From NCBI GenBank assembly GCA_043821265.1, contig JBDRCY010000025.1, forward strand, positions 1 through 55,213: a stretch of DNA of 55,213 bases, given 5' to 3'. Shown here in pieces: positions 26,766 through 52,011 of this stretch; within the stretch, counting starts at the first letter, position 1, and every line of letters begins with the position of its first letter. Origin of the DNA: Chloroflexota bacterium (GTDB lineage: Bacteria > Chloroflexota > Dehalococcoidia > Dehalococcoidales > JBDRCY01). Under the pieces are notes generated by a model. It saw only the letters and a program-made list of their open reading frames with translations, did no database searches and was not told the origin of the DNA. Position numbers and translations under genes: made by a program.

Positions 26766-28223
26766 TCAGGCAGTGGCACCCTCTTTCTCCAGCACCGACC
26801 ACAGCCGGTCGGGGGCCCCGCCGAAGTACTGCGGCCACTGTGCCTCAACCTGCTTCATCCTCTCCCGATGGGGCGCCGCCAGTTCATGGTCCCAGTCCTC
26901 ATCACGGGTGGCGTCAATACCCATGCGGGAGATAACGGTGCCGCGACTGGCCTTTCTGCCGATGGTATCAGCCTCGATGCTCTGTGCCACCTCGGGAATG
27001 ATGAAAACATCCCGGCAGGGCGAAACATGCGTGGCCATAACCCACTCCACCTGACTCAGGTTAAAGGGGTCAACATCATCATCCACCACCACTATAGTGT
27101 GTACGTTGGGCCTCATCGCCCAGATGGCGTCCATCACCTGCAAGGGCTGCCCCGGATAGGTCTTAGAGATGGAGACAATCATATGCTGGCAACAGGAGCT
27201 TAAGGTAGCATTAAGCGCTCTCACCCCGGGCAGGATGCGTCTCAGGTTGGATAGAATGGCGGCAGAACCCGCCACGTGCGGTATATAGCTATTCTCCGCC
27301 GGTGGCGAGGGGTAGGCCACATAGATGAACGGAAAAACCGGCGCCCGACGACGGGTAATCGCGGTTACCTCAATTACCGGCTGCGGCGGCGGGCTTTTTA
27401 CATAGAAGCCCCAGAAGTCGGAAAAGGGGCCGAAGGTCTCCCTTAATTCGGGCAGCATCCGGCCCTCGATAACCATCTCGGCATGGGCGGGCACATTCAG
27501 GTCAACGGTCTTACACTTCACCACCTCTACCGGCTCCCCCCTTACCGTGCAGGCCACCTCCAATTTGTCACGGCCGTAGGTTATCGAGGCCCCGGAGAGC
27601 ATATGCAGCACCGGGTCAACACCAATAACCACCGCCACCTCCAGCGGTCTACCCAGCCTCTCCGCCTTGTCAAAATACTGCCGCACCCGCCTGATTGGGG
27701 CGATAAAGCTGGCCAGCTTCCTTGAGCCGGTAATCTTAACGTAATGCGCCCCCAAGCAGTAATTCCCGCTGTCCGGCTCCTTGGCCATCACCACCCCGGA
27801 ATAGATCGCCGGGTCAGTCTCCAGCTCACAACCGAGCATACCGGGCACCTCCTCCAGCAGGTTGACCCCCTCCCCCTCGATGACCACCTCCTGGCAGGGG
27901 GCTTCGGTCACCACCCTGGGCTGGATACACCTTGCGGAGGCGAGACTATCGGCAATCTCACCGACCAGGTCCTTCATGGTGGCCGCTGGCGGCCTTCCCA
28001 GAGCGGTGAGGACATTCTCCACCGAGCCGTAGAGGTTGCCCACACCCGGCATAGGGTAGCCCTTAATTTTTTCAAAGTAGACCGCCATGCCGGGGCAGTC
28101 CCTCTGCGCCTTCATTAGAACGCAGGCTACTTCATGGGCCGGGTCCACCTCCCTGGTTATCCTGAGCAGCTTGCCCTGATTTTCCAGAATAGAAATTAGT
28201 TCCCTTAAATCACCAATGGGCAT
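26766..28223 (-). CDS. UbiD family (de)carboxylase, non-canonical
   Basis: DLRELI...REVDP, VPAHAEMVIEG, GPFSD, VVVDDDVDP...VEW, MGIDAT. ATG at 28223 follows GAGGGGG. Confidence 0.9.
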   Translation of the reverse strand: MPIGDLRELISILENQGKLLRITREVDPAHEVACVLMKAQRDCPGMAVYFEKIKGYPMPGVGNLYGSVENVLTALGRPPAATMKDLVGEIADSLASARCIQPRVVTEAPCQEVVIEGEGVNLLEEVPGMLGCELETDPAIYSGVVMAKEPDSGNYCLGAHYVKITGSRKLASFIAPIRRVRQYFDKAERLGRPLEVAVVIGVDPVLHMLSGASITYGRDKLEVACTVRGEPVEVVKCKTVDLNVPAHAEMVIEGRMLPELRETFGPFSDFWGFYVKSPPPQPVIEVTAITRRRAPVFPFIYVAYPSPPAENSYIPHVAGSAAILSNLRRILPGVRALNATLSSCCQHMIVSISKTYPGQPLQVMDAIWAMRPNVHTIVVVDDDVDPFNLSQVEWVMATHVSPCRDVFIIPEVAQSIEADTIGRKASRGTVISRMGIDATRDEDWDHELAAPHRERMKQVEAQWPQYFGGAPDRLWSVLEKEGATA

Positions 28224-28541
28224 CGCTTTCACCCCCCTCTATAAATTATGGCGGAAGCCAATTATTTTAGTGCTTCTTCTCTATCGCTACCATATGGCAT
28301 CACGAAGCTATCATCCCTACAAGTCGCAACCGAATATCACAAGAAGCATTATACCACCAGGACAATATTCCCTCAAGAATACCACGCAAGCCATACCATA
28401 TTCTATAACGGCTAGATACTGGGGCAAACTTGTGCTATAATCCAGCAATCAGGGACTTTTACGACTATTACATCCGCTCGCCTGAGGGATGAGTATGACT
28501 TGGGCCATAGTTAGCAAACTATTAACTCTGGAGGTGTCTTA

Positions 28542-28787
28542 ATGAGGTTTCGTTCTACCGGACTGGGAAAGACCGAACTAGAGGCAACACCTAAAAGCCT
28601 GGAGGTGGCGGGCGGCCTGCTGATTCTCCACGTGCAAACCACCACTCCCGTGCGCTGGCACATCAGGGCGGGCATTCAGCGTAAGGACTTATTTAAACTC
28701 GTCAGGATGGTCTTTAGCCTGAGCCTGCTCAAATACCTCTTCAGTTCCCTCATCGGGGCCAGCTCCAAAGAGCCGGAAAATTTCTGA
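28542..28787 (+). CDS. small hypothetical protein (81 aa)
   Basis: GGAGG RBS, ORF MRFRSTGLGKTELE..., first gene of the co-directional run. Confidence 0.75.
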   Translation: MRFRSTGLGKTELEATPKSLEVAGGLLILHVQTTTPVRWHIRAGIQRKDLFKLVRMVFSLSLLKYLFSSLIGASSKEPENF

Positions 28788-28938
28788 ATATCACATGAGC
28801 GAAATCAAAAGGGCCAGGAAATTCTTATAATTCACATAAGTAGAATTTCAATGAGGCGAATAATCTAAAAATATCTCACGAGCAAACTCTAAGGGGCCGA
28901 AAAATCCTAAAATTTACATGAGCAAAATTTCAAGGAGG
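28765..28938. repeat. degenerate ~41 bp tandem repeat (about 4 units)
   Basis: Cores TCACATGAGC (28791), TCACATAAGT (28832), TCTCACGAGC (28874), TTACATGAGC (28913). Alternate units are more alike, giving an ~82 bp super-period. Confidence 0.7.
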
Positions 28939-28943
28939 TGATT

Positions 28944-29714
28944 ATGTCAGCGGTACTTAAGGACAAGGTAGCCATTATTACCGGAGCCAGCCAGGGAATC
29001 GGGCGGGATTTCGCCCGGCGCTTTGCCGAGGAAGGCGCCAGACTGGTAGTGGCGGCGCGCAGCCTCGACAAACTGGAGAAACTGGTCGCCGAGATAAAGG
29101 CTAACGGTGGCGAGGCCCTAGCAGTGAAAACCGATATCTCGGACGAGGCCAGCGTGAAAGCAATGGCCGATGCCGCCATAAAACAGTACGGCAGGGTGGA
29201 TATACTCTTAAATAATGCCGCCGTCTATTACGGACTCCCCTTTAAGCCATGGGACAGCTGGACGGTAGAGGAGTGGGACCGCCTGTTCGAGGTGAACGTG
29301 AGGGGGACCTGGCTCGTCTGTAAGACGGTAGCTCCCCATATCATAAAGCAGGGGAAGGGTAAAATCATTAACACCTGCTCCAATATCATGATGCCCATTC
29401 CCGTCGCCGGTGACCACCTGCTGCACTACACCGTCAGCAAGGGGGCAATATACACGCTGACCCAGTGCCTGGCGCGAGCGCTCGGTGAAAACAACATCAA
29501 TGTAAACGCCATCGCCCCCGGGGCCACCGCCTCCGAGGCCACCAACGAGATGCTCAATGACGAGGCCTGGGCCGGCAGCGTCGCCGCCCAGTGCATTCCC
29601 CGCCGCGCCCAGACACAGGATATTGTCGGGATAGCTGTGTTTCTGGCCTCCGACGGCTCGGATATGATAAGCGGCCAGGTCATCGCGGTCGACGGCGGCG
29701 TCTGGCTGAAATAA
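28944..29714 (+). CDS. short-chain dehydrogenase/reductase (SDR)
   Basis: TGASQGIG, NNAA, YTVSK, VNAIAPG. Confidence 0.95.
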   Translation: MSAVLKDKVAIITGASQGIGRDFARRFAEEGARLVVAARSLDKLEKLVAEIKANGGEALAVKTDISDEASVKAMADAAIKQYGRVDILLNNAAVYYGLPFKPWDSWTVEEWDRLFEVNVRGTWLVCKTVAPHIIKQGKGKIINTCSNIMMPIPVAGDHLLHYTVSKGAIYTLTQCLARALGENNINVNAIAPGATASEATNEMLNDEAWAGSVAAQCIPRRAQTQDIVGIAVFLASDGSDMISGQVIAVDGGVWLK

Positions 29715-29735
29715 GTAACCACCAAGGAGTGCAGA

Positions 29736-31586
29736 ATGAGCCAATATAAAGCCAAGCTCTTACGGATTAATCTGTCCAACGCTACCTGCCGGCGGGAGGA
29801 TATACCCCAAGAGGCCATTGCCAATTTTATCGGCGGCCGGGGACTGGGGGCCTGGTATCTCTATAACGAGGTGAAGCCGGGAACCGACCCCCTGGGGCCG
29901 GATAATAAGCTGTTCTTCAGCATCGGGCCGCTGGCCGCTACCGGCACGCCCAACACCACACGCTGGGTAGTAAACTCCAAAAGCCCCCTCGGTGGGAGCT
30001 ACCGCCACGGGGTGGGCGGCGGCGATTTCGGCGCCGCCCTGAATTTCGCCGGGCTGGACATGATTATAGTGGAGGGAAGAGCAGCGAACCCAGTCTATAT
30101 CTACATTGAGGACGGCCAATGCGAGATAAAGGATGCCCGCCAGTTATGGGGGAAGAACAGCGTAGAGACCCTCGACGAACTGAAGGCAATCCACGGTAAA
30201 AAGACCGATGCCGCCTGCATCGGCCCGGCATCCGAGAAGATGACCCTCTTCGGCAATATCATGACGGCACGGGCCCACTGTGTCGGTCGCGGCGGACTGG
30301 GCACGGTCATGGGCTCCAAGAACCTGAAGGCGGTAGCCGTTAAGCCCTCCGGCAGGGCCAGCGCCCCGAACCAGGAACTAAAGGCGCTCATCGCCCAGGG
30401 ACTCGAGGCCTATGACAATAGCCCCGTAATACCCGTATTCAAGATACACGGTACCCTGTACGGCCTGGAGGGAATGAGCGATAAGGGGTCATACCCCACG
30501 CGCAACTATCAACAGGGTAGCCTCGGTGGCATCAAGAAGGTAAACGCCGAAAAGTTCTTGGAAATCAAGGTAAAGAGCGAACGCTGCTACGGCTGCCCCG
30601 TCCACTGCGGGCGCCAGATGCGCCTAACTAGCGGGCCTTACGCCGGCACCACCACCGACGGCTTTGAACACGAGACCAGCTGGGCGTTCACCGGTACCAT
30701 AGATAGCGACGATATCGCCACCCCCATCGTGGCCGATAAGTTCTGCGACGAGATGGGTCTGGACACTATCAGCGCCGGCAATACCATTGGCTTTGCCTTC
30801 GAGCTATTCGAGAAGGGCATCATCACCGAAAAGGATACCGACGGCCTTAAGTTGACCTGGGGCAACCACGAAGCGGCACTCAAGCTACTGAAGAAGATAG
30901 CCAACCGCGAGGGCCTGGGCGATATCCTCTCCCAGGGTGTCAAGCACGCCGCGGAGCACTTCGGCCAGGGCTCGGCCGACTTTGCCATACAGGTCAAGGG
31001 CACCGAGTGGCCGGCCTACGACCCTCGGGCGGCCAAGTGGCACGGTCTGGCCATCGCCACCTGCGCCTGCGCCGCCAACCACAACCCCGGCTATAATATC
31101 CAGGAAGTGCTGGATGTCCCCTTCCCGCGCGTGGTCGACCGCTTCGCCGAGAGCGGAACCGCCGACATCAACAAGGGCAACGAGGACTGGATCGCCGTGG
31201 TCGATTCCCTGGTCAGTTGCTCATTTATGGGCAATATGGGGCTGCCGCCGCTGCCAGTCCTGGGACAGTGGCTGGCCCTGGTTACCGGCATCCCCCAGTT
31301 CGCCAACGTGGAGACCCTCCTCCAGGCAGGCGAGCGCATCGTCAACCTGGAGCGCGCCTTCAATATCCGGGAGGGCTTCGGCCGCCAGGACGATTACCCA
31401 CCCAAGAGGTTCCTCACCGAGCCGCTCAAAAATGGCGGCACGGCCGAGGGCTCCGTTATTTCAAATTATGACGGCATGCTCGATGAGTACTACGCGGTCA
31501 GGGGCTGGCAAAAGGACGGCATACCCACCGCCGATAAGCTCAAGGCGCTGGGACTGGAGAAGGTAGCCAGCGACATCATCAAGTAG
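29736..31586 (+). CDS. aor: tungsten aldehyde:ferredoxin oxidoreductase family protein
   Basis: GGRGLG, KSPL, GRGGLGTVMGSKNLKA, CYGCPVHC, DEMGLD, ERAFN. Confidence 0.92.
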   Translation: MSQYKAKLLRINLSNATCRREDIPQEAIANFIGGRGLGAWYLYNEVKPGTDPLGPDNKLFFSIGPLAATGTPNTTRWVVNSKSPLGGSYRHGVGGGDFGAALNFAGLDMIIVEGRAANPVYIYIEDGQCEIKDARQLWGKNSVETLDELKAIHGKKTDAACIGPASEKMTLFGNIMTARAHCVGRGGLGTVMGSKNLKAVAVKPSGRASAPNQELKALIAQGLEAYDNSPVIPVFKIHGTLYGLEGMSDKGSYPTRNYQQGSLGGIKKVNAEKFLEIKVKSERCYGCPVHCGRQMRLTSGPYAGTTTDGFEHETSWAFTGTIDSDDIATPIVADKFCDEMGLDTISAGNTIGFAFELFEKGIITEKDTDGLKLTWGNHEAALKLLKKIANREGLGDILSQGVKHAAEHFGQGSADFAIQVKGTEWPAYDPRAAKWHGLAIATCACAANHNPGYNIQEVLDVPFPRVVDRFAESGTADINKGNEDWIAVVDSLVSCSFMGNMGLPPLPVLGQWLALVTGIPQFANVETLLQAGERIVNLERAFNIREGFGRQDDYPPKRFLTEPLKNGGTAEGSVISNYDGMLDEYYAVRGWQKDGIPTADKLKALGLEKVASDIIK

Positions 31587-31605
31587 GCCGGAAGGAGAAG
31601 GACAA

Positions 31606-33243
31606 ATGGCTGATGCAAGCTACGACGTGGTCATAGTGGGCGGGGGGAATAAGACCTTAATTACCGCCATGTACCTCACCAAGTATGCCGGGCTGAGCGT
31701 GGGTGTCTTCGAGGAGAAGCACGAACTGGGCACCGGCTGGTGCTCCGAGGAAAGCCCGGCCCCGGGATTCATCGCCAACCACTGCTCCAGCGCCCACACC
31801 ACCGAATACAACACCCTGGTCAATGAGGACTTTCCCGAGTGGATAGAATACGGCGCCAAGCAGATTGACCACACCCTGACCCTGTGCACCCTCTTCGAGG
31901 AGGACGATACCTGCTGTGCCGTCTATCAGGGGAACGTGGACCCCACCCAGGAGAAGACCGCCGAGGTATTCGCCCGGTTCTCCCAGCGGGATGCCGAAAA
32001 ATGGCTGTGGCTGTGGGACAAGATGCAGAAGTACTGGCGCCCCGCGGTGAGGGAATGGGTCTGGAACCCGGCCCAGCCCTGGGGACAGATGGACGGCATG
32101 GACAAGCTGCTATTCGACCCCGAAAGCGGCGTGAACCCGCACTGGACGGTGATGACCTACCCGGCGGTAATCGCCGAGCTGTTCGAATCGATAGAGGTGC
32201 GAATGACCTTCGCCCGGGTATTCCAGTCCATGGGCGTGCCGCCCGACTCCTACGGAGGCGGCTTCACCTTCGTGCCCCTGCTGGTATCCGGTACCTATCA
32301 GTGCACCTATGCCGGCGGCGTTCACACCGAGGCCCACGCAGCCCAGAGGGTCATCTTCGAGAACGGGGGTAAGACCTTCGCCCAGCACAGGGTGGATAAA
32401 ATACTCATCGAAAACGGTAAGGCCAGGGGCATACGCCTGGCCGACGGCACCGAGGTGGAGGCTAAACTGGCGGTGCTCTCGGGCGTTGACCCCACCCAGC
32501 TCTGCCTGGAGCTGATAGGCGAAGACTACCTGAGCCAGGACATCGTGGGCAAGATAAAGCGGCTGGAAAGGGACTGGACGACCATCACCTGGTATACCTG
32601 GGCCCTCAAGGAGCGGCCCAAGTACAAGGCCGAGAACTTCCTGCCCGATGCCTACCAGTGCGCCGTCCTCTTCCTGGGCGATAAGTCCATGGAAAATATC
32701 TGGGACGAGTCCAACCGGAGGCGCATGGGACTCTGGCCCGACCCCGATAAACTATGCACCCTGGTTGTCGACCACTCCTACCTTACCGAATGCGGCTATG
32801 CCCCCGAGGCCAAGTCCGCCCCCCTGACCGAGGTCTTTGTCGTCCCCGGCCACCTGCACGACGAGCAGTGGTGGAAACAGAAAGAGAAGGAGCACGCCCG
32901 GGAGGTGATGTCGTGGTGGGGGAAATACGCCACCAACATGGACTGGGACAACGTCATCGGCTATGTACCCATCACCCCCTACTTCATCTCCAAACATGCC
33001 CGCACCTGGGGGCCGGCCGGGAACTGGGCCTGTATCGATAATACCCCGCCCCAGATAGGCCGGTGGCGGCCGATACCCGAGCTGGCCGACCACAGGATGC
33101 CGATCGAGAAGCTCTATGCCACCGGCACGGCCTGGCACCCGGCGGCCAATGGCTGGGCCTGGCAGGGGTACAATGCCTATAAAGTAATGGCCGAAGACTT
33201 AGGGCTACCCAAGCCGTGGGAGGAAAAGGGACGACCCTATTAG
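31606..33243 (+). CDS. phytoene dehydrogenase-like (COG1233) FAD oxidoreductase, subunit 1
   Basis: YDVVIVGGGNKT (degenerate GxGxxG), E...LGTG, RMPIEKLYATGTAWHP. Confidence 0.82.
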   Translation: MADASYDVVIVGGGNKTLITAMYLTKYAGLSVGVFEEKHELGTGWCSEESPAPGFIANHCSSAHTTEYNTLVNEDFPEWIEYGAKQIDHTLTLCTLFEEDDTCCAVYQGNVDPTQEKTAEVFARFSQRDAEKWLWLWDKMQKYWRPAVREWVWNPAQPWGQMDGMDKLLFDPESGVNPHWTVMTYPAVIAELFESIEVRMTFARVFQSMGVPPDSYGGGFTFVPLLVSGTYQCTYAGGVHTEAHAAQRVIFENGGKTFAQHRVDKILIENGKARGIRLADGTEVEAKLAVLSGVDPTQLCLELIGEDYLSQDIVGKIKRLERDWTTITWYTWALKERPKYKAENFLPDAYQCAVLFLGDKSMENIWDESNRRRMGLWPDPDKLCTLVVDHSYLTECGYAPEAKSAPLTEVFVVPGHLHDEQWWKQKEKEHAREVMSWWGKYATNMDWDNVIGYVPITPYFISKHARTWGPAGNWACIDNTPPQIGRWRPIPELADHRMPIEKLYATGTAWHPAANGWAWQGYNAYKVMAEDLGLPKPWEEKGRPY

Positions 33244-33264
33244 TTTCATAAAAAAGGAGAAGCC

Positions 33265-34893
33265 ATGAACCAGTATGACGTTATCATTATCGGCGGCGGT
33301 CCCAACGGGCTGGTAGCCGGCGCCTACCTGGCCAAGGCCGGGCAGAAGGTGCTGGTGCTGGAGCGCCGCTACGAAATGGGCGGCGGGCTGGCTACCGAGG
33401 AGGTAGTCGGCACCCCCCATTTCTATATCAACACCCACGCCATATACATGATGATGGTCGATTACGCTCCCCCCTATAACGACCTCGAACTGGAGACTAA
33501 ATACGGCCTCAAACACATCTATCCACCGCTGCAGTTCGCCATGCCCCTGGCCGACGGGAGATGCCTGTGCCTCTATAGCGATGTGGACAAGAGCTGCGAA
33601 TCCATAGCCCGGTTCTCCACCCGTGACAGCGATAGCTACCGGGAGATATACCACCGTTATCAGCGATATGTGGACGAGTTCGTCGGCCCGGCCACCTATG
33701 TGCAGGCAGTGCCCACCATCGAGCAGGCAGCCAACCTGGAACAGACCGAGCTGGGCCGGGAGATGAGCGAGCTGGCCGAGAAGACCCCCAAAGACCTGGT
33801 TTTCGAACTATTCGAGAACGAGTATGTCCGGTCGCTGATACTCCAGGTCGCCTGCCAGTGGGGGCTGGACCCGGAACAGTCCGGGCTGGGGTATCTTATT
33901 CCACTCTATATTAACCGGGCCACCAACTACCGTATGTGCGCCGGCGGCTCCCACATGCTGGCGCAGGCGCTCATCAAGGTAATCCTGGAGAACGGGGGCA
34001 GCCTGCGGACAGCGGTGCGGCCAAAGCGTATTATCGTCAGTGACGGCCGGGCCACCGGCGTAGAGCTGGATGATGGGCGGGTCTATGAGGCCGCCAAGGC
34101 TGTGGTCAGCACCATCGATACCCATCAGACCTTCCTCAAACTGGTGGGGGCAGAGAACCTAGACGAGGAGTTCGTGGAAGGGATAAAGCTGTGGCAATGG
34201 GAGCACTGGAGTTTGCTGGGCGTGCACCTGGCCCTGGATGAGGCACCGGAGTTTGCCGCCGCCAGGGACAACCCGGAGATTAACGACGCCTTTATGTACC
34301 TGCTGGGGCTGGAACACCCGGAGGAATTCATCGCGCACTATGAGGCCATAGGCCGGGGGGAGCTACCCGAGAAAAGGGGTATTACCCTGTCCATCCCCAG
34401 CCGGCATGACCCCAGCCCGGCCCCCCCCAGAAAACACACCGGACATACCACCCAGATGGCCCCCTACAACCTGAAGGAGGGGAGCGATAAGTGGTACTCG
34501 TACGAGTTCCGACAGGAGCAACTGCAGCGGACGCTGGCTACTATCCAGCAATATGCCCCCAATATCACCGAAGATAAGGTGCGCAACCACTACATCTCCA
34601 CGCCGGCCGATATCGAGAATAAGTATGCCGATATGGTGCAGGGCTCGTTCAAGCAGGGGCAATACCACCCCCTGCAGATGGGCTTCATGAGACCGAACGA
34701 GTATTGCTCCCAGCACCGTTCTCCCATCGAACACCTGTTCATGGGCGGTGCCTGCACCTATCCCGGCGGCTGCGTCCTCTTGGGCTCGGGCTACCTCGCC
34801 GCCGAGGCGGTGTGCGAGGACCTGGGCATCGAGAAGTGGTGGACGGAGCCGGAGATAGTCACCCGCGCCCGCGAGAAGGGGTTAATAGCGTAG
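33265..34893 (+). CDS. phytoene dehydrogenase-like (COG1233) FAD oxidoreductase, subunit 2
   Basis: YDVIIIGGGPNGL, ERRYEMGGG, GGSHML, RSPIEHLFMGGACTYPGG. Confidence 0.88.
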   Translation: MNQYDVIIIGGGPNGLVAGAYLAKAGQKVLVLERRYEMGGGLATEEVVGTPHFYINTHAIYMMMVDYAPPYNDLELETKYGLKHIYPPLQFAMPLADGRCLCLYSDVDKSCESIARFSTRDSDSYREIYHRYQRYVDEFVGPATYVQAVPTIEQAANLEQTELGREMSELAEKTPKDLVFELFENEYVRSLILQVACQWGLDPEQSGLGYLIPLYINRATNYRMCAGGSHMLAQALIKVILENGGSLRTAVRPKRIIVSDGRATGVELDDGRVYEAAKAVVSTIDTHQTFLKLVGAENLDEEFVEGIKLWQWEHWSLLGVHLALDEAPEFAAARDNPEINDAFMYLLGLEHPEEFIAHYEAIGRGELPEKRGITLSIPSRHDPSPAPPRKHTGHTTQMAPYNLKEGSDKWYSYEFRQEQLQRTLATIQQYAPNITEDKVRNHYISTPADIENKYADMVQGSFKQGQYHPLQMGFMRPNEYCSQHRSPIEHLFMGGACTYPGGCVLLGSGYLAAEAVCEDLGIEKWWTEPEIVTRAREKGLIA

Positions 34894-35033
34894 TTGGGAG
34901 GTGGAAGAAATGGCAATATTAACTATGTCGCCCTTTGCCTCACCCCCGCTTGATAAGCTTCCGCTATCCACCCTGGATAGCCTACGAGCACCTGGTGGCG
35001 GGGGGTGGTCCCGATGACCTCGAGACGGCCAGG

Positions 35034-36965
35034 ATGAAATTATTCGAGCCGGGCCAGATAGGCAACCTCACCCTGAAGAACCGCATAGTTATGGCGGCCA
35101 TGCACCCCACGGGGCTGATAACCGAGGAGGGGATACTTTCGCCGCGCGGTATAGAGTATCATGCCCTCCGGGCCAAGGGTGGGGTAGGCATGATAACCAG
35201 CGGCTCCTTCCTAGTGCACCGCGAGTTCCAGGAGGCCCCCTCCGCTATCATCTTCGATAGCGATAAACACATGCCCTGGCTCAAGCAACTGGCAGAGGCA
35301 GTGCACGGCTACGGGGCCAAGCTGGCCATAGCCCTTTCCCCCGGCCAGGGGCGCTGTGTACCCCTGGTCCTGGCCCAGAAATGCGGTGCCGCCGGGCCAT
35401 CCCCGCTACCCCTGGTCTGGGACCCCAACGTCCTGACCCGCGAGTTGAGCGTAGCGGAGATTAAGCGATGCGTAGATGCCTTCGAATACAGCGCCCGCCT
35501 GCTCAAAGACGCCGGGGTGGACGCTATCGAGATAAACTGCCATTGCGGCTATATCCTCGACGAGTTTATGACTACCCTCTGGAATAAGCGAACCGACCAG
35601 TACGGTGGCAGCCTCAAGAACCGCCTCCGCTTCGTTATCGAGGTAATTGAGGCGATAAAGAGGGGGGCCGGCCAGGACTACCCCATAATCTTCAAATACG
35701 GCCTTACCCACTACCTGGATGGTGGACGAACGGTCGAGGAGGGGCTGGAGATAGCCCAGCAACTGGAAGCGGCAGGTGTAGCTGCCTTCGATATCGATGC
35801 CGGCTGCTACGAGACCCCCTACTGGTACATCCCGCCGGTCACCCAACCGCAGTGCTGCAATGTAGTGCTGGCCCAGCGGCTAAAGCAGGTGGTCAGTGTG
35901 CCGGTTATCAGCGAGGGCAAGCTGGGACGCCCGGACCTGGCCGGGAAGGTAATAGCGGAAGGCAAGGCCGACTTCGTTGCCCTGGGGAGACCACTGCTGG
36001 CCGACCCGGAATGGGCCAACAAGGTAGAGGCGGGGCAACTGGAAGACGTCCGCCCCTGCATTGGCGACATGGAGGGCTGCCTGGGCATGACCAGGCAGCG
36101 CAAACCCATCAGCTGCACCGTGAACCCGGCAGCGGGTAACGAGCAGGAGCTCGCCCTGAAGCCGGCAGAGCGGCCCAAGACGGTGCTGGTGGTCGGGGGC
36201 GGACCGGGGGGAATGGAGGCCGCCATAGTAGCGGCACAGCGGGGCCACCAGGTCACCCTGTGGGAGAAAACCGATAGCCTGGGAGGCAACCTGGTAACCG
36301 CCTCACTACCCGATTTCAAGGCCGATTTCCGGCTACTGATGGAGTATCTGCCCAGGCAACTGGAAAAGCTGGGAGTAGACATCGAACTCGATAAGGAGGC
36401 TAGCCCCGAGCTGATTCTTGAGATGAACCCCGAAGCCGTCTTCATCGCCACCGGCAGCAGCGGGCCCATCATCCCCGAAATCCCCGGTGTGAAGAAGAAG
36501 CACGTGGTCACGGCCATTGACCTGATTCTGGGCAGGAAAGAGGCGGGGAAATCGGTAGCGGTCATCGGCGGCGGCCTCATCGGCACCGAGGTGGCGCTGC
36601 ACCTGGCACAAAAGGGTAAAAGGGTAACCGTCATAGAGATACTGGACAGCATCATAGGCGACATGGTCAGTATCAGCCGGGCCCACTTCCTGAAACTCCT
36701 GGCCGATAACAAGGTGAGGGTGCTGACCGGGACCACCGTCCGGGAGATAACCGACGACGGCGTCATCGTGGCCGGTAAGAGCGGCAAAGAGCGCCCCCTG
36801 AAGGCCGATACCGTGGTGCTGGCTATAGGTCTAAGGTCTGATAGTAAGCTCGCGGAGGCATTAAAGGACAAAGGGCCCGAAATCTACGCTATCGGCGACG
36901 TGGTGGAGCCGCGCAAGATAATTAACGCCATGTGGGAGGCCTACGGACTGGCCCGCCTGATTTAG
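35034..36965 (+). CDS. NADH:flavin oxidoreductase (OYE-like FMN domain plus Fe-S plus FAD/NAD domain; enoate/BaiCD/DCR-like)
   Basis: LKNRIVMAAM, NKRTDQYGGSLKNR, GRPLLADP, CIGDMEGC...CTVNP, VGGGPGG, IGGGLIG. Confidence 0.92.
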   Translation: MKLFEPGQIGNLTLKNRIVMAAMHPTGLITEEGILSPRGIEYHALRAKGGVGMITSGSFLVHREFQEAPSAIIFDSDKHMPWLKQLAEAVHGYGAKLAIALSPGQGRCVPLVLAQKCGAAGPSPLPLVWDPNVLTRELSVAEIKRCVDAFEYSARLLKDAGVDAIEINCHCGYILDEFMTTLWNKRTDQYGGSLKNRLRFVIEVIEAIKRGAGQDYPIIFKYGLTHYLDGGRTVEEGLEIAQQLEAAGVAAFDIDAGCYETPYWYIPPVTQPQCCNVVLAQRLKQVVSVPVISEGKLGRPDLAGKVIAEGKADFVALGRPLLADPEWANKVEAGQLEDVRPCIGDMEGCLGMTRQRKPISCTVNPAAGNEQELALKPAERPKTVLVVGGGPGGMEAAIVAAQRGHQVTLWEKTDSLGGNLVTASLPDFKADFRLLMEYLPRQLEKLGVDIELDKEASPELILEMNPEAVFIATGSSGPIIPEIPGVKKKHVVTAIDLILGRKEAGKSVAVIGGGLIGTEVALHLAQKGKRVTVIEILDSIIGDMVSISRAHFLKLLADNKVRVLTGTTVREITDDGVIVAGKSGKERPLKADTVVLAIGLRSDSKLAEALKDKGPEIYAIGDVVEPRKIINAMWEAYGLARLI

Positions 36966-37015: not shown

Positions 37016-39034
37016 TTACCTCTCTGCGACCTTTTCGGCGGAGATTACCCCCCGTTCTATCAGGTCCCGGGCCACATCACCCAGGCCGAACTCCTCCAGT
37101 CTCTCCCGGGTGGGAATTCCTGTTTCCGGGTCGCAGCCGTGCAGCCGGTAGTACTCGTCGAGCACCCTATCATAGTCCTCCAGTGTAATGGGGAACTTTA
37201 TGTCCTTTCTACGGGGATGGGGTTCTCCGTGCTCCCTCTGCCAGCGGAAGGCCCAGGGATAATCGTCCCGGCGCCTTATCTCCTCCCTGGCGTTGAAGCA
37301 GCGCTCGATGAGCATCTGGCGCTCGGCGGCCTTTTCCGTATCCTCAGGGGTAAAGTCAACCCCGGTGGCGGCCGATAAGAGACTGGCGAAGTCCTCCAGA
37401 TGGTAACCCGAGGCAAAGAAGGTAAACTGCGAGGGTATCTTGCAGATTCCCGTCGAATCGCACAGGGCACAGATATGCTCCGAGTCGTATACCAGCCGGG
37501 CCTTTTGCGGCGTGGCCCACCAGTTCTCCAAGACCAGCTGCTTATCGCCATAGCGCTCCTGGCCGAACTTGGCCAGGGCATCCAGGAGCTCCTTGGGGTC
37601 GGCCATATCGGGGAAAATCCTGGCCCCTATGGACTGCATCAGATTAATCCCCGAGATACGCGAGGCGAAGGGCGGCTTACCCACCAGGTGGTCGTGCCCC
37701 CGGGTGGAGGTGGCAAAGGCCAGGGTAACCTCGACACCGCCCGATATACCGAAACCGCGGGCGGTCATCCCCTTGTTATGGCTGATATACTTCTCCGAAC
37801 CCCGGCCCAGCCTCTCGGCTGCCCGCACGGGATATTCGTCGAGCAGGGCACCGAAGCCCTCCCGGCGGGCCATCTGATGCATCAACTCCAGCACCACCTC
37901 TTCGTTACCCCAGGTAAGCTCCAGACCGCCGGTATCCTCCCTGGTGATGATGCCGTCCTCCCACAGCTGCATGGCCCAGTTGATGGCGCAGCCGGGGTTA
38001 TTCACATGCAGGCCGAGTTGATTACACAACGTATTGGCCTTCAGGTCAAAGGCGGGGTTATCTATCTTGAACAGGTAGCTGCCATAGACAACGCCGTTGC
38101 CCTCCAGGCCGGCACCGGTGGTACCCTTATATTTGCCCTCCTTGACCGAATAATAGTGGTCGCAGTGAACGGGACAGCCGAAGCAGGCCAGGCTCTTGTC
38201 CCACAGCCCCCGTTTCCACATCTCCTCCGAGCTTAAACCATTAGGGTCGAAGCCGGGCACAAAGCCCGATTTCACTATGGGGTCGGAGACAAAGCCCGGC
38301 GTCCCGTACCGGCTGGCGACAGCATACATCGGGTCGCTCTCAATCCCCCTGGTCTTCTCTAAGGATAACCTAAGGAACTCATCGGGGCGGGCGATATTTA
38401 CCCCCTTCGTACCCCGCACCGCTACCGCCTTCAGCTTCTTGGAACCCCATACCGCACCACCGCCGGCCTTACCGGCAGCCCGTCCCAAATCACCGATGAC
38501 GCAGGCGGAAAAGCCCATATTCTCCCCGGAGGGGCCTACTTTAAGGGTCTGTATCTCCTCGTCGCCCAGCTCTTTTCGTATCATGTCCTGTGTCACCCAG
38601 GTATCCTTGCCCCATAGATGGGCGGCGTCCCTCAGCTCCACCTGGTCGTCGTCTATCCACAAATAGACCGGCTTCTTGGAGGCGCCGCGAAAGATGATGA
38701 GGTCGTAACCGGCCCACTTCAGCTCCGGGCCGAAGAAGCCGCCGCCGTTAGAGCGCAAATAAATGCCGGTCTGCGGCCCCTTGGTGATTATGTCGTAGCG
38801 CCCGCTCGACGGCGCCGTAGTGCCGCTTAAGGGCCCCTGAGTGACCATCAGTATATTATCCGGCCCCAACGGGTCGGTACCGGGCTCAACCTCGTCGTAG
38901 AGTATCTTTACCGCCAGCCCGGCGCCGCCGATATGCTTGGCAGCCAGTTCCCGGTCCAGCGGCGTTTTGACAATCTCGCCGGTGGTCAGATTAACCTCTA
39001 ATATCGTTCCGGCCCAGCCATACCACTCGGTCAT
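37016..39034 (-). CDS. aldehyde:ferredoxin oxidoreductase (W) family protein, divergent clade
   Basis: GWAGTILEVNLT, GGFFGPELKWAGYD, GAVWGSKKLKA, CFGCPVHC, DSTGIC. Confidence 0.9.
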   Translation of the reverse strand: MTEWYGWAGTILEVNLTTGEIVKTPLDRELAAKHIGGAGLAVKILYDEVEPGTDPLGPDNILMVTQGPLSGTTAPSSGRYDIITKGPQTGIYLRSNGGGFFGPELKWAGYDLIIFRGASKKPVYLWIDDDQVELRDAAHLWGKDTWVTQDMIRKELGDEEIQTLKVGPSGENMGFSACVIGDLGRAAGKAGGGAVWGSKKLKAVAVRGTKGVNIARPDEFLRLSLEKTRGIESDPMYAVASRYGTPGFVSDPIVKSGFVPGFDPNGLSSEEMWKRGLWDKSLACFGCPVHCDHYYSVKEGKYKGTTGAGLEGNGVVYGSYLFKIDNPAFDLKANTLCNQLGLHVNNPGCAINWAMQLWEDGIITREDTGGLELTWGNEEVVLELMHQMARREGFGALLDEYPVRAAERLGRGSEKYISHNKGMTARGFGISGGVEVTLAFATSTRGHDHLVGKPPFASRISGINLMQSIGARIFPDMADPKELLDALAKFGQERYGDKQLVLENWWATPQKARLVYDSEHICALCDSTGICKIPSQFTFFASGYHLEDFASLLSAATGVDFTPEDTEKAAERQMLIERCFNAREEIRRRDDYPWAFRWQREHGEPHPRRKDIKFPITLEDYDRVLDEYYRLHGCDPETGIPTRERLEEFGLGDVARDLIERGVISAEKVAER

Positions 39035-39035
39035 T

Positions 39036-39623
39036 TTACTCACCCCCTGCAGGGGCCTGCAGACCATCCGGGATGACCCTCGGCTTTACCACTATCGAGG
39101 GCTGAAGAGCAGCCACGCAGGTAAACCCCGCTGCTTCCTTATCGGAGCCGTACTTTGCTTCCAGTTCCTCCAGAGGGCCCCCGTCCAGCGCCCGCATGGT
39201 ACAGGCAGCCACGCAGATAGGAGATTTATTTTCGGCCAGCCGGTCAAGGCACAGGTCGCACATCTGCATCCTGGCATCTTCCTCGGCCCCGAACTGGGGC
39301 GCCTCATAGGGGCAGGCATCCAGACAGAAGGTACAGCTATCCTTCCCCAGGCATAACTCGCGGTCAACCACCACTATGCCGTCCTGGGCCCTCTTGCTGA
39401 TAGCGCCCACGGGACAGGCACTAAGACAGGCCGGCCGGGCACAATGGTAACAGGCGGTAGAGAGGAAAGCCAGGAACAGGTGGGGGAATTCGCCCCTCTC
39501 AACGGGGAGCACCCGCCGCCAGCTGGCCGGGCCGGCGGGCACGTCATGCCAGTCCTTACAGGCCACCACGCAGCTATGGCAACCGATACAGCGCGTCTGG
39601 TCAAAATAGAACCCCATCTGCAT
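39036..39623 (-). CDS. DmsB-like 4x[4Fe-4S] subunit
   Basis: CIGCHSCVVACK, CYHCARPACLSACP, CLDACP, CDLC...CVAAC. Confidence 0.92.
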   Translation of the reverse strand: MQMGFYFDQTRCIGCHSCVVACKDWHDVPAGPASWRRVLPVERGEFPHLFLAFLSTACYHCARPACLSACPVGAISKRAQDGIVVVDRELCLGKDSCTFCLDACPYEAPQFGAEEDARMQMCDLCLDRLAENKSPICVAACTMRALDGGPLEELEAKYGSDKEAAGFTCVAALQPSIVVKPRVIPDGLQAPAGGE

Positions 39624-39624
39624 A

Positions 39625-41820
39625 CTACTTCCCCTCATACCTGGCTACCTGCACCAGGGCGGTGTGAGTGCACCATCCCCCGGCGGGCGAGTGCTCGTCC
39701 CTGGTGAGCACATTGGGGCAGCCGCCCCTATCGGCCCCGCTGCTATCCGGCCGGTACCAGGCCCCCTGGTTGATACTGACCACACCGGGCACGATTCTCT
39801 CGGTAACCTTAGCCGCGATAATAATCTCACCCCGGTCATTGAATATCCGTACCTCGTCCCCGTCACCGATTCCCCTGGCCGAGGCATCGCCAGTATTTAG
39901 CCACACCTGCTGCGGCTCCAGCTCCTTGGCCCAGGGAATATTGTCGAAATTCGAGTGTGCCCGCATCTTGGCATGGGGGGTAATAAGCTGCAGAGGATAC
40001 TTCTCGGCCAGCGGGTCATTACGTCCCTCCCAGGTCTCAATATAACGTGGAATAGGCGGCATTCCCGGGTCGTTTATGTCGGCGACACGCTGTGAGTATA
40101 TCTCAATCTTACCCGAGGGCGTGGGGAAGGGGTTATTCCCGGGGTCGGCTATCTCCTTTTCGAAGGAGATAGCCGGCTCGGGCGGATGTACCTTTAAGAC
40201 ACCCTCCTTACGGAAGGCATCGAAGCCCGCTACGTGCTGGCGCACGCCAGGATTGGCCATCACAATCTCGCGCAGCCACTCGTCCGGTGCCTTCTCGGAG
40301 TAATCATTAATGCCCAGCCGGGGGGCCAGCTCGGCACAGATCTGAAAATCGGACTTCGCTTCATACAGCGGCTCGATGGCCTGGCTGGAATAGATATAAT
40401 AGGGGCAGGAAAACTTGGCGGAATGAAAATCGTTGGCCTCGAAATTGGTGACCACCGGCAGCAGGATATCGGCAAACCGGGCTGTCGCCGTCATAAACTG
40501 CTCCTGGGCGACGATAAACTCCAGCTTCTTAAAGGCCTCGACCCCCTTGTTGATATTGGGGAACTGGTTCAGGGTATTACCACAGTTCACCCAGACCATC
40601 TTAATATCGCTAGGATAGCCACCGGACTTGCCCTGTAAAATGGCATCGTATATCTTGCACTGGAGGACTCGCTGGGTGCTTTTCAGGGCACTGTCCAGGC
40701 TGGTCGAGATACCACGGGGGGCACCCGCGCTGAGCGGGTTCCTGCCCCGGGGCAGGACGCCGGATGACAGCGAATCCGTGGCCATGGTGGGTGGAAAGCC
40801 ACGGCCGGCGGGATTGCCACCGTGGATACCGATATTAGCGGTCATCGCCGCCAGGGTAGCGGCCGCCCGGTGGTATTGCTCGCCGTAAGCGGTACGCCCC
40901 GGGCCGTAGCCGTTAATCAAGGCCGCTGGCCGGGTGGCAGCATACTCCTGGGCCAGGCCGACGATAGCATCGGCCCCAACGCCGGTGATGGCCTCAGCCC
41001 ACCGGGGGGTCTTGGCCACACCGTCCTCTATGCCCAGCACATAGTCCTTGAACCTGTCAAAGCCCACCGTATAAGTAGCAATGAAATCCCGGTCATACAG
41101 GTTTTCGGTTATCATCACGTAGGCCATAGCCACCAGCATGGCGGTATCGGTGCCCGGACGAATGGGTATCCACCGGTCGGCGAAGACAGCGGCGGAATCG
41201 GTGAACCGGGGGTCAACGCAGATGACCCTGGCCCCCGCTTCCCTGGCCCGGGCCAGGTGATAGGTGGTATTATCGCCATATATCAGCTCCGCCGGGTTCT
41301 TGCCCCACAGTATAATCAGGCGGGAATTGAGCAGGTCCTCACAGGTGTGGCCGGTAAAGGTCGTGCCGTAAGTGGCCCGGGAGGCCCACAGGTCCGCCTC
41401 CGCCGAAGCGCCACCCCAGTGCTGCAGGTGGCCGCCGAACTTGTTGAGCAGCCTCCCCACCGCCGACGACTGTATGCTCCCCTGATTGCCGGCATACTGC
41501 AGGTTGATAACTGCCCCCAGCCCGTACTGCTCCTTGATCCTCTTAAGCTGGGAGGCCACCTCATCCAGGGCCTCGTCCCAGCCGACCCGCTCAAAGCTGC
41601 CCTCGCCCCTGGGACCAACCCTCCTCATCGGGTACTGCAAACGGTCCGGGGCATATACCCGCTGCCGCTGGGCGCGACCCCGGGCGCAGGCCCTTAACTG
41701 CGGCTCCGCGCCGTCATCGGTCTCTATTCTAACAATCACGCCGTCCTTAACATGCACCCTGAGCAGGCACCGCCCGGGACAGTCATGCCAGCAGCAATTG
41801 GTGATTACCGTCTCGCCCAT
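39625..41820 (-). CDS. DMSO-reductase family molybdopterin oxidoreductase (DmsA-like, no Tat signal)
   Basis: CWHDCPGRC...C, RLQYPM, PIRPGTD, ADILLP, TPSGKIEI; no twin-arginine leader. Confidence 0.92.
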   Translation of the reverse strand: MGETVITNCCWHDCPGRCLLRVHVKDGVIVRIETDDGAEPQLRACARGRAQRQRVYAPDRLQYPMRRVGPRGEGSFERVGWDEALDEVASQLKRIKEQYGLGAVINLQYAGNQGSIQSSAVGRLLNKFGGHLQHWGGASAEADLWASRATYGTTFTGHTCEDLLNSRLIILWGKNPAELIYGDNTTYHLARAREAGARVICVDPRFTDSAAVFADRWIPIRPGTDTAMLVAMAYVMITENLYDRDFIATYTVGFDRFKDYVLGIEDGVAKTPRWAEAITGVGADAIVGLAQEYAATRPAALINGYGPGRTAYGEQYHRAAATLAAMTANIGIHGGNPAGRGFPPTMATDSLSSGVLPRGRNPLSAGAPRGISTSLDSALKSTQRVLQCKIYDAILQGKSGGYPSDIKMVWVNCGNTLNQFPNINKGVEAFKKLEFIVAQEQFMTATARFADILLPVVTNFEANDFHSAKFSCPYYIYSSQAIEPLYEAKSDFQICAELAPRLGINDYSEKAPDEWLREIVMANPGVRQHVAGFDAFRKEGVLKVHPPEPAISFEKEIADPGNNPFPTPSGKIEIYSQRVADINDPGMPPIPRYIETWEGRNDPLAEKYPLQLITPHAKMRAHSNFDNIPWAKELEPQQVWLNTGDASARGIGDGDEVRIFNDRGEIIIAAKVTERIVPGVVSINQGAWYRPDSSGADRGGCPNVLTRDEHSPAGGWCTHTALVQVARYEGK

Positions 41821-41834
41821 ATCCGATGCGCCTC

Positions 41835-43052
41835 TCACTCGAAGGTCCCCTCCGCCAGTAGCTGGTGGAACTCCTCGTCCGACATGCCAATGAGCCTGGT
41901 ATATACGTATTCATTGTGCTCCCCCAGGCCGGGGGCAAACTTTATCTCATAGGGCGTCTTGGACATATGCACCGGCATACCGCTAAAGGAGAAAGCCCCT
42001 ATCCTGGGATGCTCCAGCTCCCAGTAAAAATGGCGGTGTTTTAATTGAGGGTCGTTATCCAGCTCCCCGGCATGCGAGGCCATGCCGGCGGCCACCCCCG
42101 CCCCCTGCAACAGCTCCATCACCTCCCGGGCAGTACGCACCTGCGTCCACTCCCCGACCAAGTCGTCCAGCCTGTCCACGTTCTCCAGCCGGCCGGCGGC
42201 GGTATCCAGTGCCGGGTCCTGAGTCCACTCCGGAGAGCCTATAGCCCGGCAGAAGCCCCGCCACTCCTCATCGCTAAACACGGTGATAGCCACCCACCTG
42301 TCCTCCCCCCGGCAGCGATAGACACCGTGGGGAGCGGCGTAGTTCGACCTATTGCCCATCCTCCCCGCCTCCCGGTTATTGGCCTGGTAGTCGAGTAGCA
42401 GCGGCCCCATAAAGGGAACGGTTGTCTCCAGCTGGGCGGCATCGATGTACTGCCCCTTGCCCGTCCGCTCCCGGTAGTCCAGGGCGGAGACGATGGCCAA
42501 GGCGTTAGCCCTCATGGCTACCGGGTCGGTAAAACCGAAGCCGGGGAACTGCGGCAGCTGGTCGGGGAAACCGGTGAGGTGGGGCAGCCCGGTTGCCGCC
42601 GTAAGCGGCTCGGCATACCCGGGCACGGTAGCCATGGGGCCCGTCTGGCCGTAGAGGCAGGAACTGAGCATAATAATATCGGGCTTTATACCCCTTAACA
42701 CCTCGTAGCCCAGGCCCATCCGCTCCATAGCCCCCCCGGCAAAGTTCTCAATCACCACATCAGTCCATTTTATCAGCCTCCTGGCCACCGACATCCCCTT
42801 GGGGTGCTTCAGGTTAAGGGTTATGCCCAGCTTGCCGGAGTTGATAAACAGAAAGCCGGTAGCCCTATCATGGGACTTCACCCCGCCGATAAACGGGGAT
42901 ACGTCCCGCTGGGTATCCAATCTCGTCGCCGTTTCCACCTTGACCACGGTGGCCCCGTAGGCCGCCAGGATGGTATTGCTCATCGGGCCGGCCAGACGCC
43001 AGCAGAAACTGAGGACATTTACACCATCAAGTGGTTTCCTGTTAATTTTCAA
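41835..43052 (-). CDS. CaiB/BaiF CoA-transferase (BbsF-like, catalytic Asp present)
   Basis: PLDGVNV, GATVVKVE, DVVIENF, GFTD, APGLGEHN. Confidence 0.92.
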   Translation of the reverse strand: MKINRKPLDGVNVLSFCWRLAGPMSNTILAAYGATVVKVETATRLDTQRDVSPFIGGVKSHDRATGFLFINSGKLGITLNLKHPKGMSVARRLIKWTDVVIENFAGGAMERMGLGYEVLRGIKPDIIMLSSCLYGQTGPMATVPGYAEPLTAATGLPHLTGFPDQLPQFPGFGFTDPVAMRANALAIVSALDYRERTGKGQYIDAAQLETTVPFMGPLLLDYQANNREAGRMGNRSNYAAPHGVYRCRGEDRWVAITVFSDEEWRGFCRAIGSPEWTQDPALDTAAGRLENVDRLDDLVGEWTQVRTAREVMELLQGAGVAAGMASHAGELDNDPQLKHRHFYWELEHPRIGAFSFSGMPVHMSKTPYEIKFAPGLGEHNEYVYTRLIGMSDEEFHQLLAEGTFE

Positions 43053-51831: not shown

Positions 51832-52011
51832 AACATACCTCCATCTTCTCAATATCTAACGACTCAGGTGAGCCTCCGGCCCCGCTATCCCCGGCCCCAC
51901 TGCAATACGCCCCCTCGCTATACATTCCATATTACTGATAACTCATAGTGAAAGCAAGCTGGCGGAGCCTGCCGGCGAGCAATGATATATAGCCCCGGCT
52001 CTCAAATCGGG

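Follow-up and report, generated by a model that had tools for sequence, protein, structure and literature searches.

A CtmAB-like flavoprotein pair with a conserved 81-residue partner: a candidate module for oxygen-independent C-H oxidation in Dehalococcoidia and other anaerobic lineages

We analyzed a 55,213-nucleotide stretch of DNA (the window) that spans positions 1 to 55,213 of contig JBDRCY010000025.1 (contig C25) in assembly GCA_043821265.1, a 0.93-Mb, 30-contig, 64%-complete genome of a Chloroflexota bacterium of the order Dehalococcoidales. Positions 28542 to 36965 of the window hold one operon of six genes. They encode an 81-residue protein that we call p81, a short-chain dehydrogenase/reductase (SDR), a protein of the aldehyde:ferredoxin oxidoreductase (AOR) family (AOR1), two paralogous flavoproteins of COG1233 (A and B), and an Old Yellow Enzyme-type reductase (OYE). 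Judged by their sequences, A and B are probably the subunits of a flavoenzyme of the CtmAB/delta24-SD type, named for the limonene dehydrogenase CtmAB of Castellaniella defragrans and the sterol delta24-desaturase (delta24-SD) of Sterolibacterium denitrificans, and they would form a branch of the CrtI/amine-oxidase fold. We found that the A/B pair, p81, an alcohol dehydrogenase, and an aldehyde oxidoreductase, often accompanied by CoA-transferases, make up a conserved gene module. On balance, we think it probable that the operon serves an oxidative C-H activation whose product is carried from alcohol to aldehyde to acid.

The six open reading frames (ORFs) lie on the forward strand in the order p81, SDR, AOR1, A, B, and OYE (Table 1), which bears out the co-directional run of an 81-residue protein, an SDR, an AOR, two flavoproteins of about 545 residues, and an OYE reported in the initial annotation of this DNA. 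Spacing is tight from the second gene on, with 21 nt between SDR and AOR1, 19 nt between AOR1 and A, 21 nt between A and B, and 41 nt between B and OYE; the gap between p81 and SDR is 150 nt. Translation of p81 would start behind a good ribosome-binding site, GGAGGTG. Promoter-like sites that match the consensus lie 5' of p81 and, divergently, in front of a gene for a UbiD-family enzyme. There is no convincing forward-strand terminator inside the six-gene cluster, and an AOR gene in convergent orientation lies 3' of the OYE gene. Four direct repeats (family D1), spaced by 41, 42, and 40 nt and 62 to 71% identical to their reference copy, occupy the gap between p81 and SDR, the first copy overlapping the 3' end of p81. 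These repeats could be relics of a tandem p81 duplication or a regulatory element. The closest named homologs of the operon genes come from metagenome-assembled genomes (MAGs) of Chloroflexota and Dehalococcoidia. Of the sequencing datasets listed as matching this DNA, none was an RNA set, and the DNA sets had 0.06 to 0.11 of the sampled words in common with it.

Table 1. Features of the operon and of its surroundings in the window
Feature	Position	Strand	Size	Evidence or remark
Tubulin/FtsZ-family protein	2948-4123	-	391 aa	CetZ C-terminal domain
UbiD-family (de)carboxylase	26766-28232	-	488 aa	TIGR00148 291 bits, above cut-off
Divergent promoter-like site, UbiD gene	28376-28348	-		Consensus match
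Promoter-like site, 5' of p81	28413-28441	+		TAGATA-17-TATAAT, 10/12 matches, TG extension; consensus match only
p81	28542-28787	+	81 aa	First operon gene; no Pfam or NCBIfam match
Direct repeats D1	28768-28935		4 copies, ~41 nt	
SDR	28938-29714	+	258 aa	adh_short 186 bits; no NCBIfam equivalog cut-off reached
AOR1, aldehyde:ferredoxin oxidoreductase family	29736-31586	+	616 aa	AFOR_N 237, AFOR_C 399 bits
Flavoprotein A	31606-33243	+	545 aa	Sub-threshold or weak Rossmann family matches only
Flavoprotein B	33265-34893	+	542 aa	Amino_oxidase 43 bits
OYE/FadH/NCR-type flavoprotein	34935-36965	+	676 aa	TTG start as called; Oxidored_FMN 201, Pyr_redox_2 129 bits
AOR, 4Fe-4S dicluster protein, DMSO-reductase-family protein	37016-41838	-	683, 200, 737 aa	Co-directional trio
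Family-III CoA-transferases	41835-44327	-		Tandem pair
Molybdopterin oxidoreductase	46723-49179		818 aa	
Third AOR	49990-51852		620 aa	

The two flavoproteins are 29% identical to each other over their full length (E = 8e-47). Sequence searches of the PDB with A and B returned Rossmann-level matches and a weak CrtI match only, and many A homologs have no precomputed Pfam match at all. In databases, the homologs are labeled "phytoene dehydrogenase-like," "NAD(P)/FAD-dependent oxidoreductase," "beta-carotene ketolase (CrtO type)," or "phytoene desaturase family." The dinucleotide-binding motif of B is canonical (IIIGGGPNG, with G10-G-G-P-N-G15), while that of A, which the initial annotation had correctly read as GGGNKT and called degenerate, is VVIVGGGNKT (G12-G-G-N-K-T17). 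The departure is mild, since A keeps G-x-G and an acidic residue after the second strand (F35-E36), which is E in 95% of the A clade. The last motif position varies within the A clade (G, 51%; A, 36%; N, 9%), and flavoprotein A of the window has T there.

In CtmAB and delta24-SD, both subunits are reported to hold flavin covalently on the His of a G-F-[L/R]-x-[N/S]-[T/L]-H-A motif (PMC11061730). B matches this motif with H-F-Y-I-N-T-H58-A. Our B set of 97 sequences takes in 19 B-like paralogs beyond the 78 members of the B clade; the motif His is conserved in 96% of the set, the N in 88%, and the F in 56%. The first motif position, H in our B, is G in 64% of the clade. The equivalent stretch of A reads G54-F-I-A-N-H59-C60-S, so the column of the flavinylated His is occupied by Cys60. 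Going by this alignment, it is possible that A has a cysteinyl flavin link or uses His59. Whether an A protein has Cys or His at this position showed no correlation with the type of neighborhood.

A and B belong to separate clades. In a tree of 170 sequences, 64 A-type sequences form one clade (support of 1.0) and 78 B-type sequences form another (0.86). The median pairwise identity is 37% in the A set and 51% in the B set. Since A is more divergent than B and some loci carry two or three A genes per B gene (see below), we propose that A is the variable, substrate-setting subunit. Relatives of B are abundant: 2,996 of 8,000 scored sequences were homologs at E ≤ 1e-3, and the best 120 are 58 to 76% identical to B once the protein of the window itself and a partial sequence 94% identical to it are set aside. 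Homologs from Desulfobacterales/Thermodesulfobacteriota are 53 to 62% identical. None of the best 80 B relatives in our scan of genome contigs came from Castellaniella or Sterolibacterium. The same genome also has a lone third COG1233 paralog (G000:C26:32719-34269, locus L002), which is 32% identical to B and falls outside the A and B clades.

An AlphaFold2 model of A, built with 29 homologs, reached a pLDDT of 90.5. Its top fold match is the gamma-carotenoid desaturase 4rep (TM score of 0.75, 16% identity), with amine oxidases and CrtI (4dgk, TM score of 0.53) next in rank; identities to the CrtI-like folds are 13 to 16%. The modeled fold of A is thus CrtI-like, and the sequences are remote from those of carotenoid enzymes.

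CtmAB and delta24-SD are described as related two-subunit enzymes with subunits 26% identical (PMC11061730), and CtmA and CtmB are given as 27% identical to each other (PMC4109377). Here, too, the pair consists of two adjacent COG1233 paralogs of about 550 residues, the mutual identities being 27 to 29% in the two systems, with the His motif in B. In 2014, the top match of CtmB was a protein of the sulfate reducer NaphS2, with 41% identity (PMC4109377). In Castellaniella, the alcohol and aldehyde dehydrogenases GeoA and GeoB act after CtmAB to yield an acid (PMC4109377, PMC11061730), and enzymes proposed for alcohol oxidation and then aldehyde oxidation likewise stand alongside A and B. Delta24-SD shares the family, the two-subunit design, and the covalent-flavin motif; an (alpha-beta)4 complex and a radical mechanism have been proposed for it, and its authors consider that one subunit may be merely structural or electron transferring (PMC11061730). 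A conserved B with a variable A would fit that idea. The operon differs from the CtmAB system in several respects. It lacks the CtmEF ferredoxin/reductase and CtmCDG, its A has Cys at the His position, and it includes a conserved 81-residue partner. Its aldehyde step would be catalyzed by an AOR-family enzyme, whereas that of Castellaniella is catalyzed by an NAD-dependent dehydrogenase, and its host belongs to a strict-anaerobe lineage, whereas Castellaniella is a denitrifier.

We scanned genomes, one per species, for relatives of B. The scan gave 176 relatives, with the best 80 matches kept, and 76 distinct loci from other genomes were analyzed. Represented among these loci are Dehalococcoidia and other Chloroflexota, Desulfobacterales/Thermodesulfobacteriota, Syntrophales, Binatia, Nitrospiria, Myxococcota, Bacillota, and Pseudomonadota MAGs. 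Their ORFs were called and clustered, and cluster representatives were annotated. Seventy-one loci were scored; L063 was dropped as a near-duplicate of L061, and L028, L035, L051, and L053 were dropped because the B gene was uncalled. Copies of each neighbor family were counted within 3 kb of A/B (321 kb of sequence) and farther away (386 kb). Of the 71 loci, 55 have A directly beside B in the same orientation; where the sequence extends at least 1.7 kb on both sides, this holds for 35 of 41. We found 31 copies of p81 within 3 kb and none farther away. SDR genes, whose homologs are present in 24/71 loci, gave 26 near copies and 1 far copy, and zinc-dependent alcohol dehydrogenase (Zn-ADH) genes gave 14 and 0, so that the pooled alcohol dehydrogenases number 40 near and 1 far. 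The corresponding counts were 13 and 2 for AOR genes, present in 14/71 loci, and 7 and 2 for genes of the molybdenum aldehyde-oxidase/xanthine-dehydrogenase type, or 20 and 4 for the pooled aldehyde oxidoreductases. The alpha subunit of family-I CoA-transferases had 12 near copies and 1 far copy. At 41 loci the sequence is 12 kb or longer; an alcohol dehydrogenase is encoded at 27 of these, an aldehyde oxidoreductase at 18, and both at 16. Because the same neighbors recur in other phyla and drop sharply past 3 kb, the gene arrangement exceeds chance. At the same place, non-orthologous enzymes stand in for one another, Zn-ADH for SDR and the molybdenum aldehyde oxidase for the presumed tungsten AOR. 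Such interchangeable enzyme types at one step fit a sequence from alcohol to aldehyde to acid to CoA ester.

Several architectures were seen among these loci. A genes outnumber B genes in 6/76 loci: three loci have two A genes and one B, two have three and one, and one has three and two. Multi-A arrays, with two to four A-type genes and one or two B-type genes, occur in L045, L055, L058, L008, L006, and L030, and five A-like proteins are encoded on contigs of 28,511 bases that are probably one metagenomic contig. An architecture of Dehalococcoidia recurs in L024, L036, L041, L042, L050, L056, L058, and L070. It begins with a 481-residue amine-oxidase-like protein, sometimes followed by an AOR, and continues with A, B, Zn-ADH, and p81, then a conserved protein of about 174 residues with no Pfam match, and finally both CoA-transferase subunits, alpha and beta. 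Downstream of A/B in L028, L032, L035, L049, L053, L022, and L047 (MAGs of Binatia, Myxococcota, and others), a second system is encoded, made up of two or three additional COG1233 paralogs. One of these is about 40% identical to B and has 1,548 homologs at E ≤ 1e-3, the 120 listed being 74 to 95% identical to it. A literature search, with subscription journals outside its scope, found no paper on the A/B module in strict anaerobes.

We propose that p81 is an accessory protein of the A/B enzyme that had gone unrecognized. When 1.84 billion cluster representatives were searched with a profile, 275 belonged to its family at E ≤ 1e-3, and the 150 matches listed are 39 to 204 residues long, none of them fused to a larger protein. 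The family has an invariant M1, an invariant S5-T6-G7-L8-G9 (giving M-x3-S-T-G-L-G), and invariant P36, W39, and D49. In 29 independent p81 loci with 1.5-kb flanks, an A/B gene adjoins p81 in 23, usually with B directly upstream, and p81 is frequently duplicated in tandem. The gene was found in 39/301 genomes sampled from the same class, the window's own genome counted, and in 0/17 of the same-order genomes listed. An AlphaFold2 model (pLDDT of 83) has a sheet of four strands and, after it, two helices, the second of which is hydrophobic. A Foldseek search of the PDB with this model gave no match with an E value below 1, and its neighbors in the Atlas are all clusters of "hypothetical protein." Complex prediction for B with p81 gave a score of 0.02 against a mark of 0.32, a result that speaks neither for binding nor against it. 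As to what p81 does, our guess would be a subunit, a membrane tether, or a flavinylation helper.

By sequence comparison, AOR1 appears nearest to true aldehyde oxidoreductases and not to BamB. It aligns over its full length with the true AORs 1aor, 9g7j, and 8c0z at 342 to 409 bits; its best PDB matches include 9g7j (409 bits), 9mqx (379 bits), and 1aor (378 bits), and the BamB-type 4z3w (210 bits) is the weakest of nine. No AorA/AorC-type partner subunit is encoded beside it. In L019 and the Chloroflexota-type loci, the AORs next to A/B share 43 to 49% identity with AOR1 and 30 to 34% with the second AOR, AOR2, which suggests a dedicated ortholog.

OYE has the layout of NCR, which we take to be 2-naphthoyl-CoA reductase, and of the 2,4-dienoyl-CoA reductase FadH, namely, Oxidored_FMN followed by Pyr_redox_2 in about 670 residues. 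Its best PDB matches are NCR 6qkg (359 bits) and FadH 1ps9 (296 bits). It scores below every NCBIfam equivalog cut-off, including that of the BaiCD model (490 bits against 825), and differs from NCR and FadH in this respect. OYE is a lineage-specific local addition that probably reduces a conjugated C=C. The UbiD-family enzyme matches 6h6x and 6h6v best (about 257 bits), presumably furandicarboxylate decarboxylase. We rejected UbiD as a core component; it is present in 10/41 long loci and shows no enrichment within 3 kb (6 copies near, 7 far). It is a loosely associated neighbor and a local addition.

Elsewhere in the window are genes for hydrogenase maturation and Hdr-like proteins, a further two AORs, two dimethyl sulfoxide (DMSO)-reductase-family proteins, two family-III CoA-transferases, the UbiD-family enzyme, and an enoyl-CoA hydratase. 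This gene content makes for an anaerobic catabolic setting, and the host is apparently anaerobic.

To the gene order, families, motifs, fold, and conserved neighborhood observed above, we add a mechanism. Its subunit contact, reaction direction, hydroxylation step, and substrate class are inferred, as are the electron acceptor and what p81 does. Without O2, A/B would abstract two electrons from a hydrophobic substrate at an activated C-H, allylic or benzylic, and addition of water would most likely give a primary alcohol. SDR would oxidize the alcohol to an aldehyde (or ketone), AOR1 would convert the aldehyde to a carboxylate with reduction of ferredoxin, and the OYE/FadH-like enzyme would, in this lineage, reduce a conjugated C=C of the product. 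Activation of the acid may fall to the family-III CoA-transferases encoded 5 kb downstream. B would be the constant partner, with its flavin covalently bound at His58, and A would be the fast-evolving subunit, probably the one that binds substrate, with Cys60 at the equivalent position. Covalent attachment of flavin generally raises its potential and favors substrate oxidation. Some of the loci point to hydrophobic substrates, with DUF1302/DUF1329 outer-membrane pairs, sigma-54/PAS regulators, and sets of MaoC hydratases and thiolases. Others have a phenolic or aromatic context, with UbiD and UbiX, a protein like the gamma subunit of phenylphosphate carboxylase, and phosphoenolpyruvate-utilizing proteins.

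A number of our observations and of published ones weigh against this oxidative reading. The initial annotation had proposed a five-gene association and a route from CH3 through CH2OH and CHO to COOH. This interpretation is borne out in part, in that A/B recurs together with p81 and with enzymes of the types that oxidize alcohols and aldehydes. However, the exact set of p81, SDR, AOR, A, and B is found in just 7 of the 41 long loci (12 kb or more). OYE was rejected as a core component, as its homologs are present in 0/71 scored loci; one 29%-identical copy was seen in L028. The genome is rich in AORs, with 8 AFOR_C matches in 0.93 Mb, so that the proximity of an AOR is weaker evidence than the operon spacing. 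Family scans of the window ORFs found no ferredoxin, electron-transferring flavoprotein, cytochrome, or CtmEF-like electron chain encoded in the operon. The A of the window is without the motif His; of the 66 A-clade members, 36 carry Cys in that column, 29 carry His itself, and a single one carries Phe. The placement of A and B with CtmAB and delta24-SD, moreover, draws on architecture, motif, and identities reported in papers. From the literature, limonene dehydrogenase is said to need an acceptor of positive potential and may be inoperative in highly reduced habitats, and in a methanogenic limonene culture, three genes related to it were silent (PMC12583861). The second characterized member of the family, delta24-SD, is described as a desaturase and not a hydroxylase (PMC11061730).

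This last point leads to the alternative that A/B is itself a desaturase like delta24-SD, which introduces a C=C beside an existing double bond or ring while SDR, AOR, and OYE act on other groups. We consider this unlikely, although of the alternatives it has the most in its favor. Delta24-SD is one of only two characterized relatives and has the two-subunit, covalent-flavin design; OYE could balance a desaturation step; and A-A-B arrays in L030, L040, and L048 stand beside pairs of MaoC-type hydratases and thiolase-like pairs, sets which we take to resemble those of side-chain degradation. The recurring neighbors, however, oxidize a primary alcohol and an aldehyde, with interchangeable enzyme types, and they need a supply of alcohol or aldehyde, which means that a desaturase alone is insufficient. 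It is improbable, too, that the neighbors have no common pathway, with A/B in an unrelated role and SDR, AOR, and OYE as independent catabolic genes. In favor of this view, the genome has 8 AOR genes in 0.93 Mb, three of them in the window, SDRs are common everywhere, and OYE is not conserved beside A/B. It fits poorly with genes on one strand spaced by 19 to 41 nt, with neighbor families that fall off past 3 kb across several phyla, and with AORs near A/B in Chloroflexota-type loci that are closer to AOR1 than to AOR2.

The reaction could also run in the other direction, with A/B as a reductase (saturase) that uses ferredoxin electrons from the AOR on conjugated C=C bonds, as an electron sink or to detoxify unsaturated aldehydes. 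The CrtI superfamily includes saturases, the host looks strictly anaerobic (hydrogenase maturation, Hdr-like proteins, 8 AOR genes), no high-potential acceptor is encoded in the operon, and a second reductase, OYE, is present. Nevertheless, we see little likelihood in this proposal. Both characterized relatives are dehydrogenases, the conserved covalent-flavin His of B argues for a raised flavin potential, and the nearby CoA-transferases and thiolase sets point to catabolism. Carotenoid enzymes (CrtI desaturase or CrtO ketolase paralogs) are where the database labels and the best fold match would place A and B, and CrtO is the top NCBIfam model for both. The scores are far below the cut-offs, which supports the CtmAB-like pair of the initial annotation and speaks against CrtI/CrtO equivalogs: A and B score 123.1 and 227.6 bits with CrtO (cut-off of 1000), and B scores 94.9 bits with crtI_fam (cut-off of 238.1). 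The fold and the N-terminal Rossmann motif are shared with CrtI, CrtD, and CrtO, but the identity is about 13 to 16% (16% to 4rep), and CrtI/CrtD/CrtO-type enzymes are reported to hold FAD noncovalently (PMC11061730). The absence of a carotenoid synthase from the window held up, with no SQS_PSY or polyprenyl synthase among the 40 ORFs scanned. A search for SQS_PSY (PF00494) gave no match in the 64%-complete 0.93-Mb genome, whereas a control search matched 8/14 genomes, and the neighbors are catabolic. A carotenoid role is thus very improbable.

Some other genes of the window deserve mention. The trio at 37016 to 41838 is convergent with the operon. Its AOR matches 1aor best in the PDB (330 bits; BamB-type 4z3w, 253 bits), and its DMSO-reductase-family protein scores 711 bits with dmsA_ynfE against a cut-off of 778. 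Homologs of the family-III CoA-transferases, 35 to 48% identical, are found near A/B in L026, L039, L066, and L073, which are from Dehalococcoidia or Chloroflexi. The tubulin/FtsZ-family gene lies in DNA with a local G+C content of 0.40 to 0.46, compared to about 0.58 elsewhere, and its CetZ-domain protein type is presumably archaeal.

To our knowledge, anaerobic attack on unfunctionalized methyl groups has been ascribed to glycyl-radical fumarate addition and to molybdenum hydroxylases, and we know of flavin-only attack on a methyl group from one enzyme of a denitrifier. Tentatively, and as a possibility that we hold less firmly than the oxidative reading of the operon, we suggest that A/B and p81 may be a widespread, unrecognized O2-independent C-H-activating flavoenzyme system of Dehalococcoidia, Desulfobacterales, Syntrophales, Binatia, and Nitrospiria MAGs, lineages which we take to be strict anaerobes. 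It would combine a constant flavinylated B, an interchangeable A that sets the substrate, and p81 as a third component. Such a system might open isoprenoids, terpenoids, and methyl-(hetero)aromatics to these organisms without fumarate addition or molybdenum hydroxylases, and would perhaps be thermodynamically feasible in reduced habitats by way of its coupling to a strongly exergonic, ferredoxin-reducing AOR step. Relative to the CtmAB/delta24-SD-type enzymes, the new features are p81 as a partner, the split between Cys and His in A, the arrays in which several A genes accompany a single B, and the link with AOR-family enzymes in presumed strict anaerobes; the conserved orphan p81 is the freshest element. 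This enzyme type recurs in many anaerobe genomes and has thousands of metagenomic relatives, despite the published argument against its operation in reduced habitats (PMC12583861). Most members of the A/B family are now labeled "phytoene dehydrogenase-like." The orphan p81, the Cys/His split at the flavin site of A, and the multi-A arrays with one B offer handles for experiments. Should the family be active, sediments and aquifers would hold a large, unannotated stock of enzymes that activate hydrocarbons or isoprenoids.

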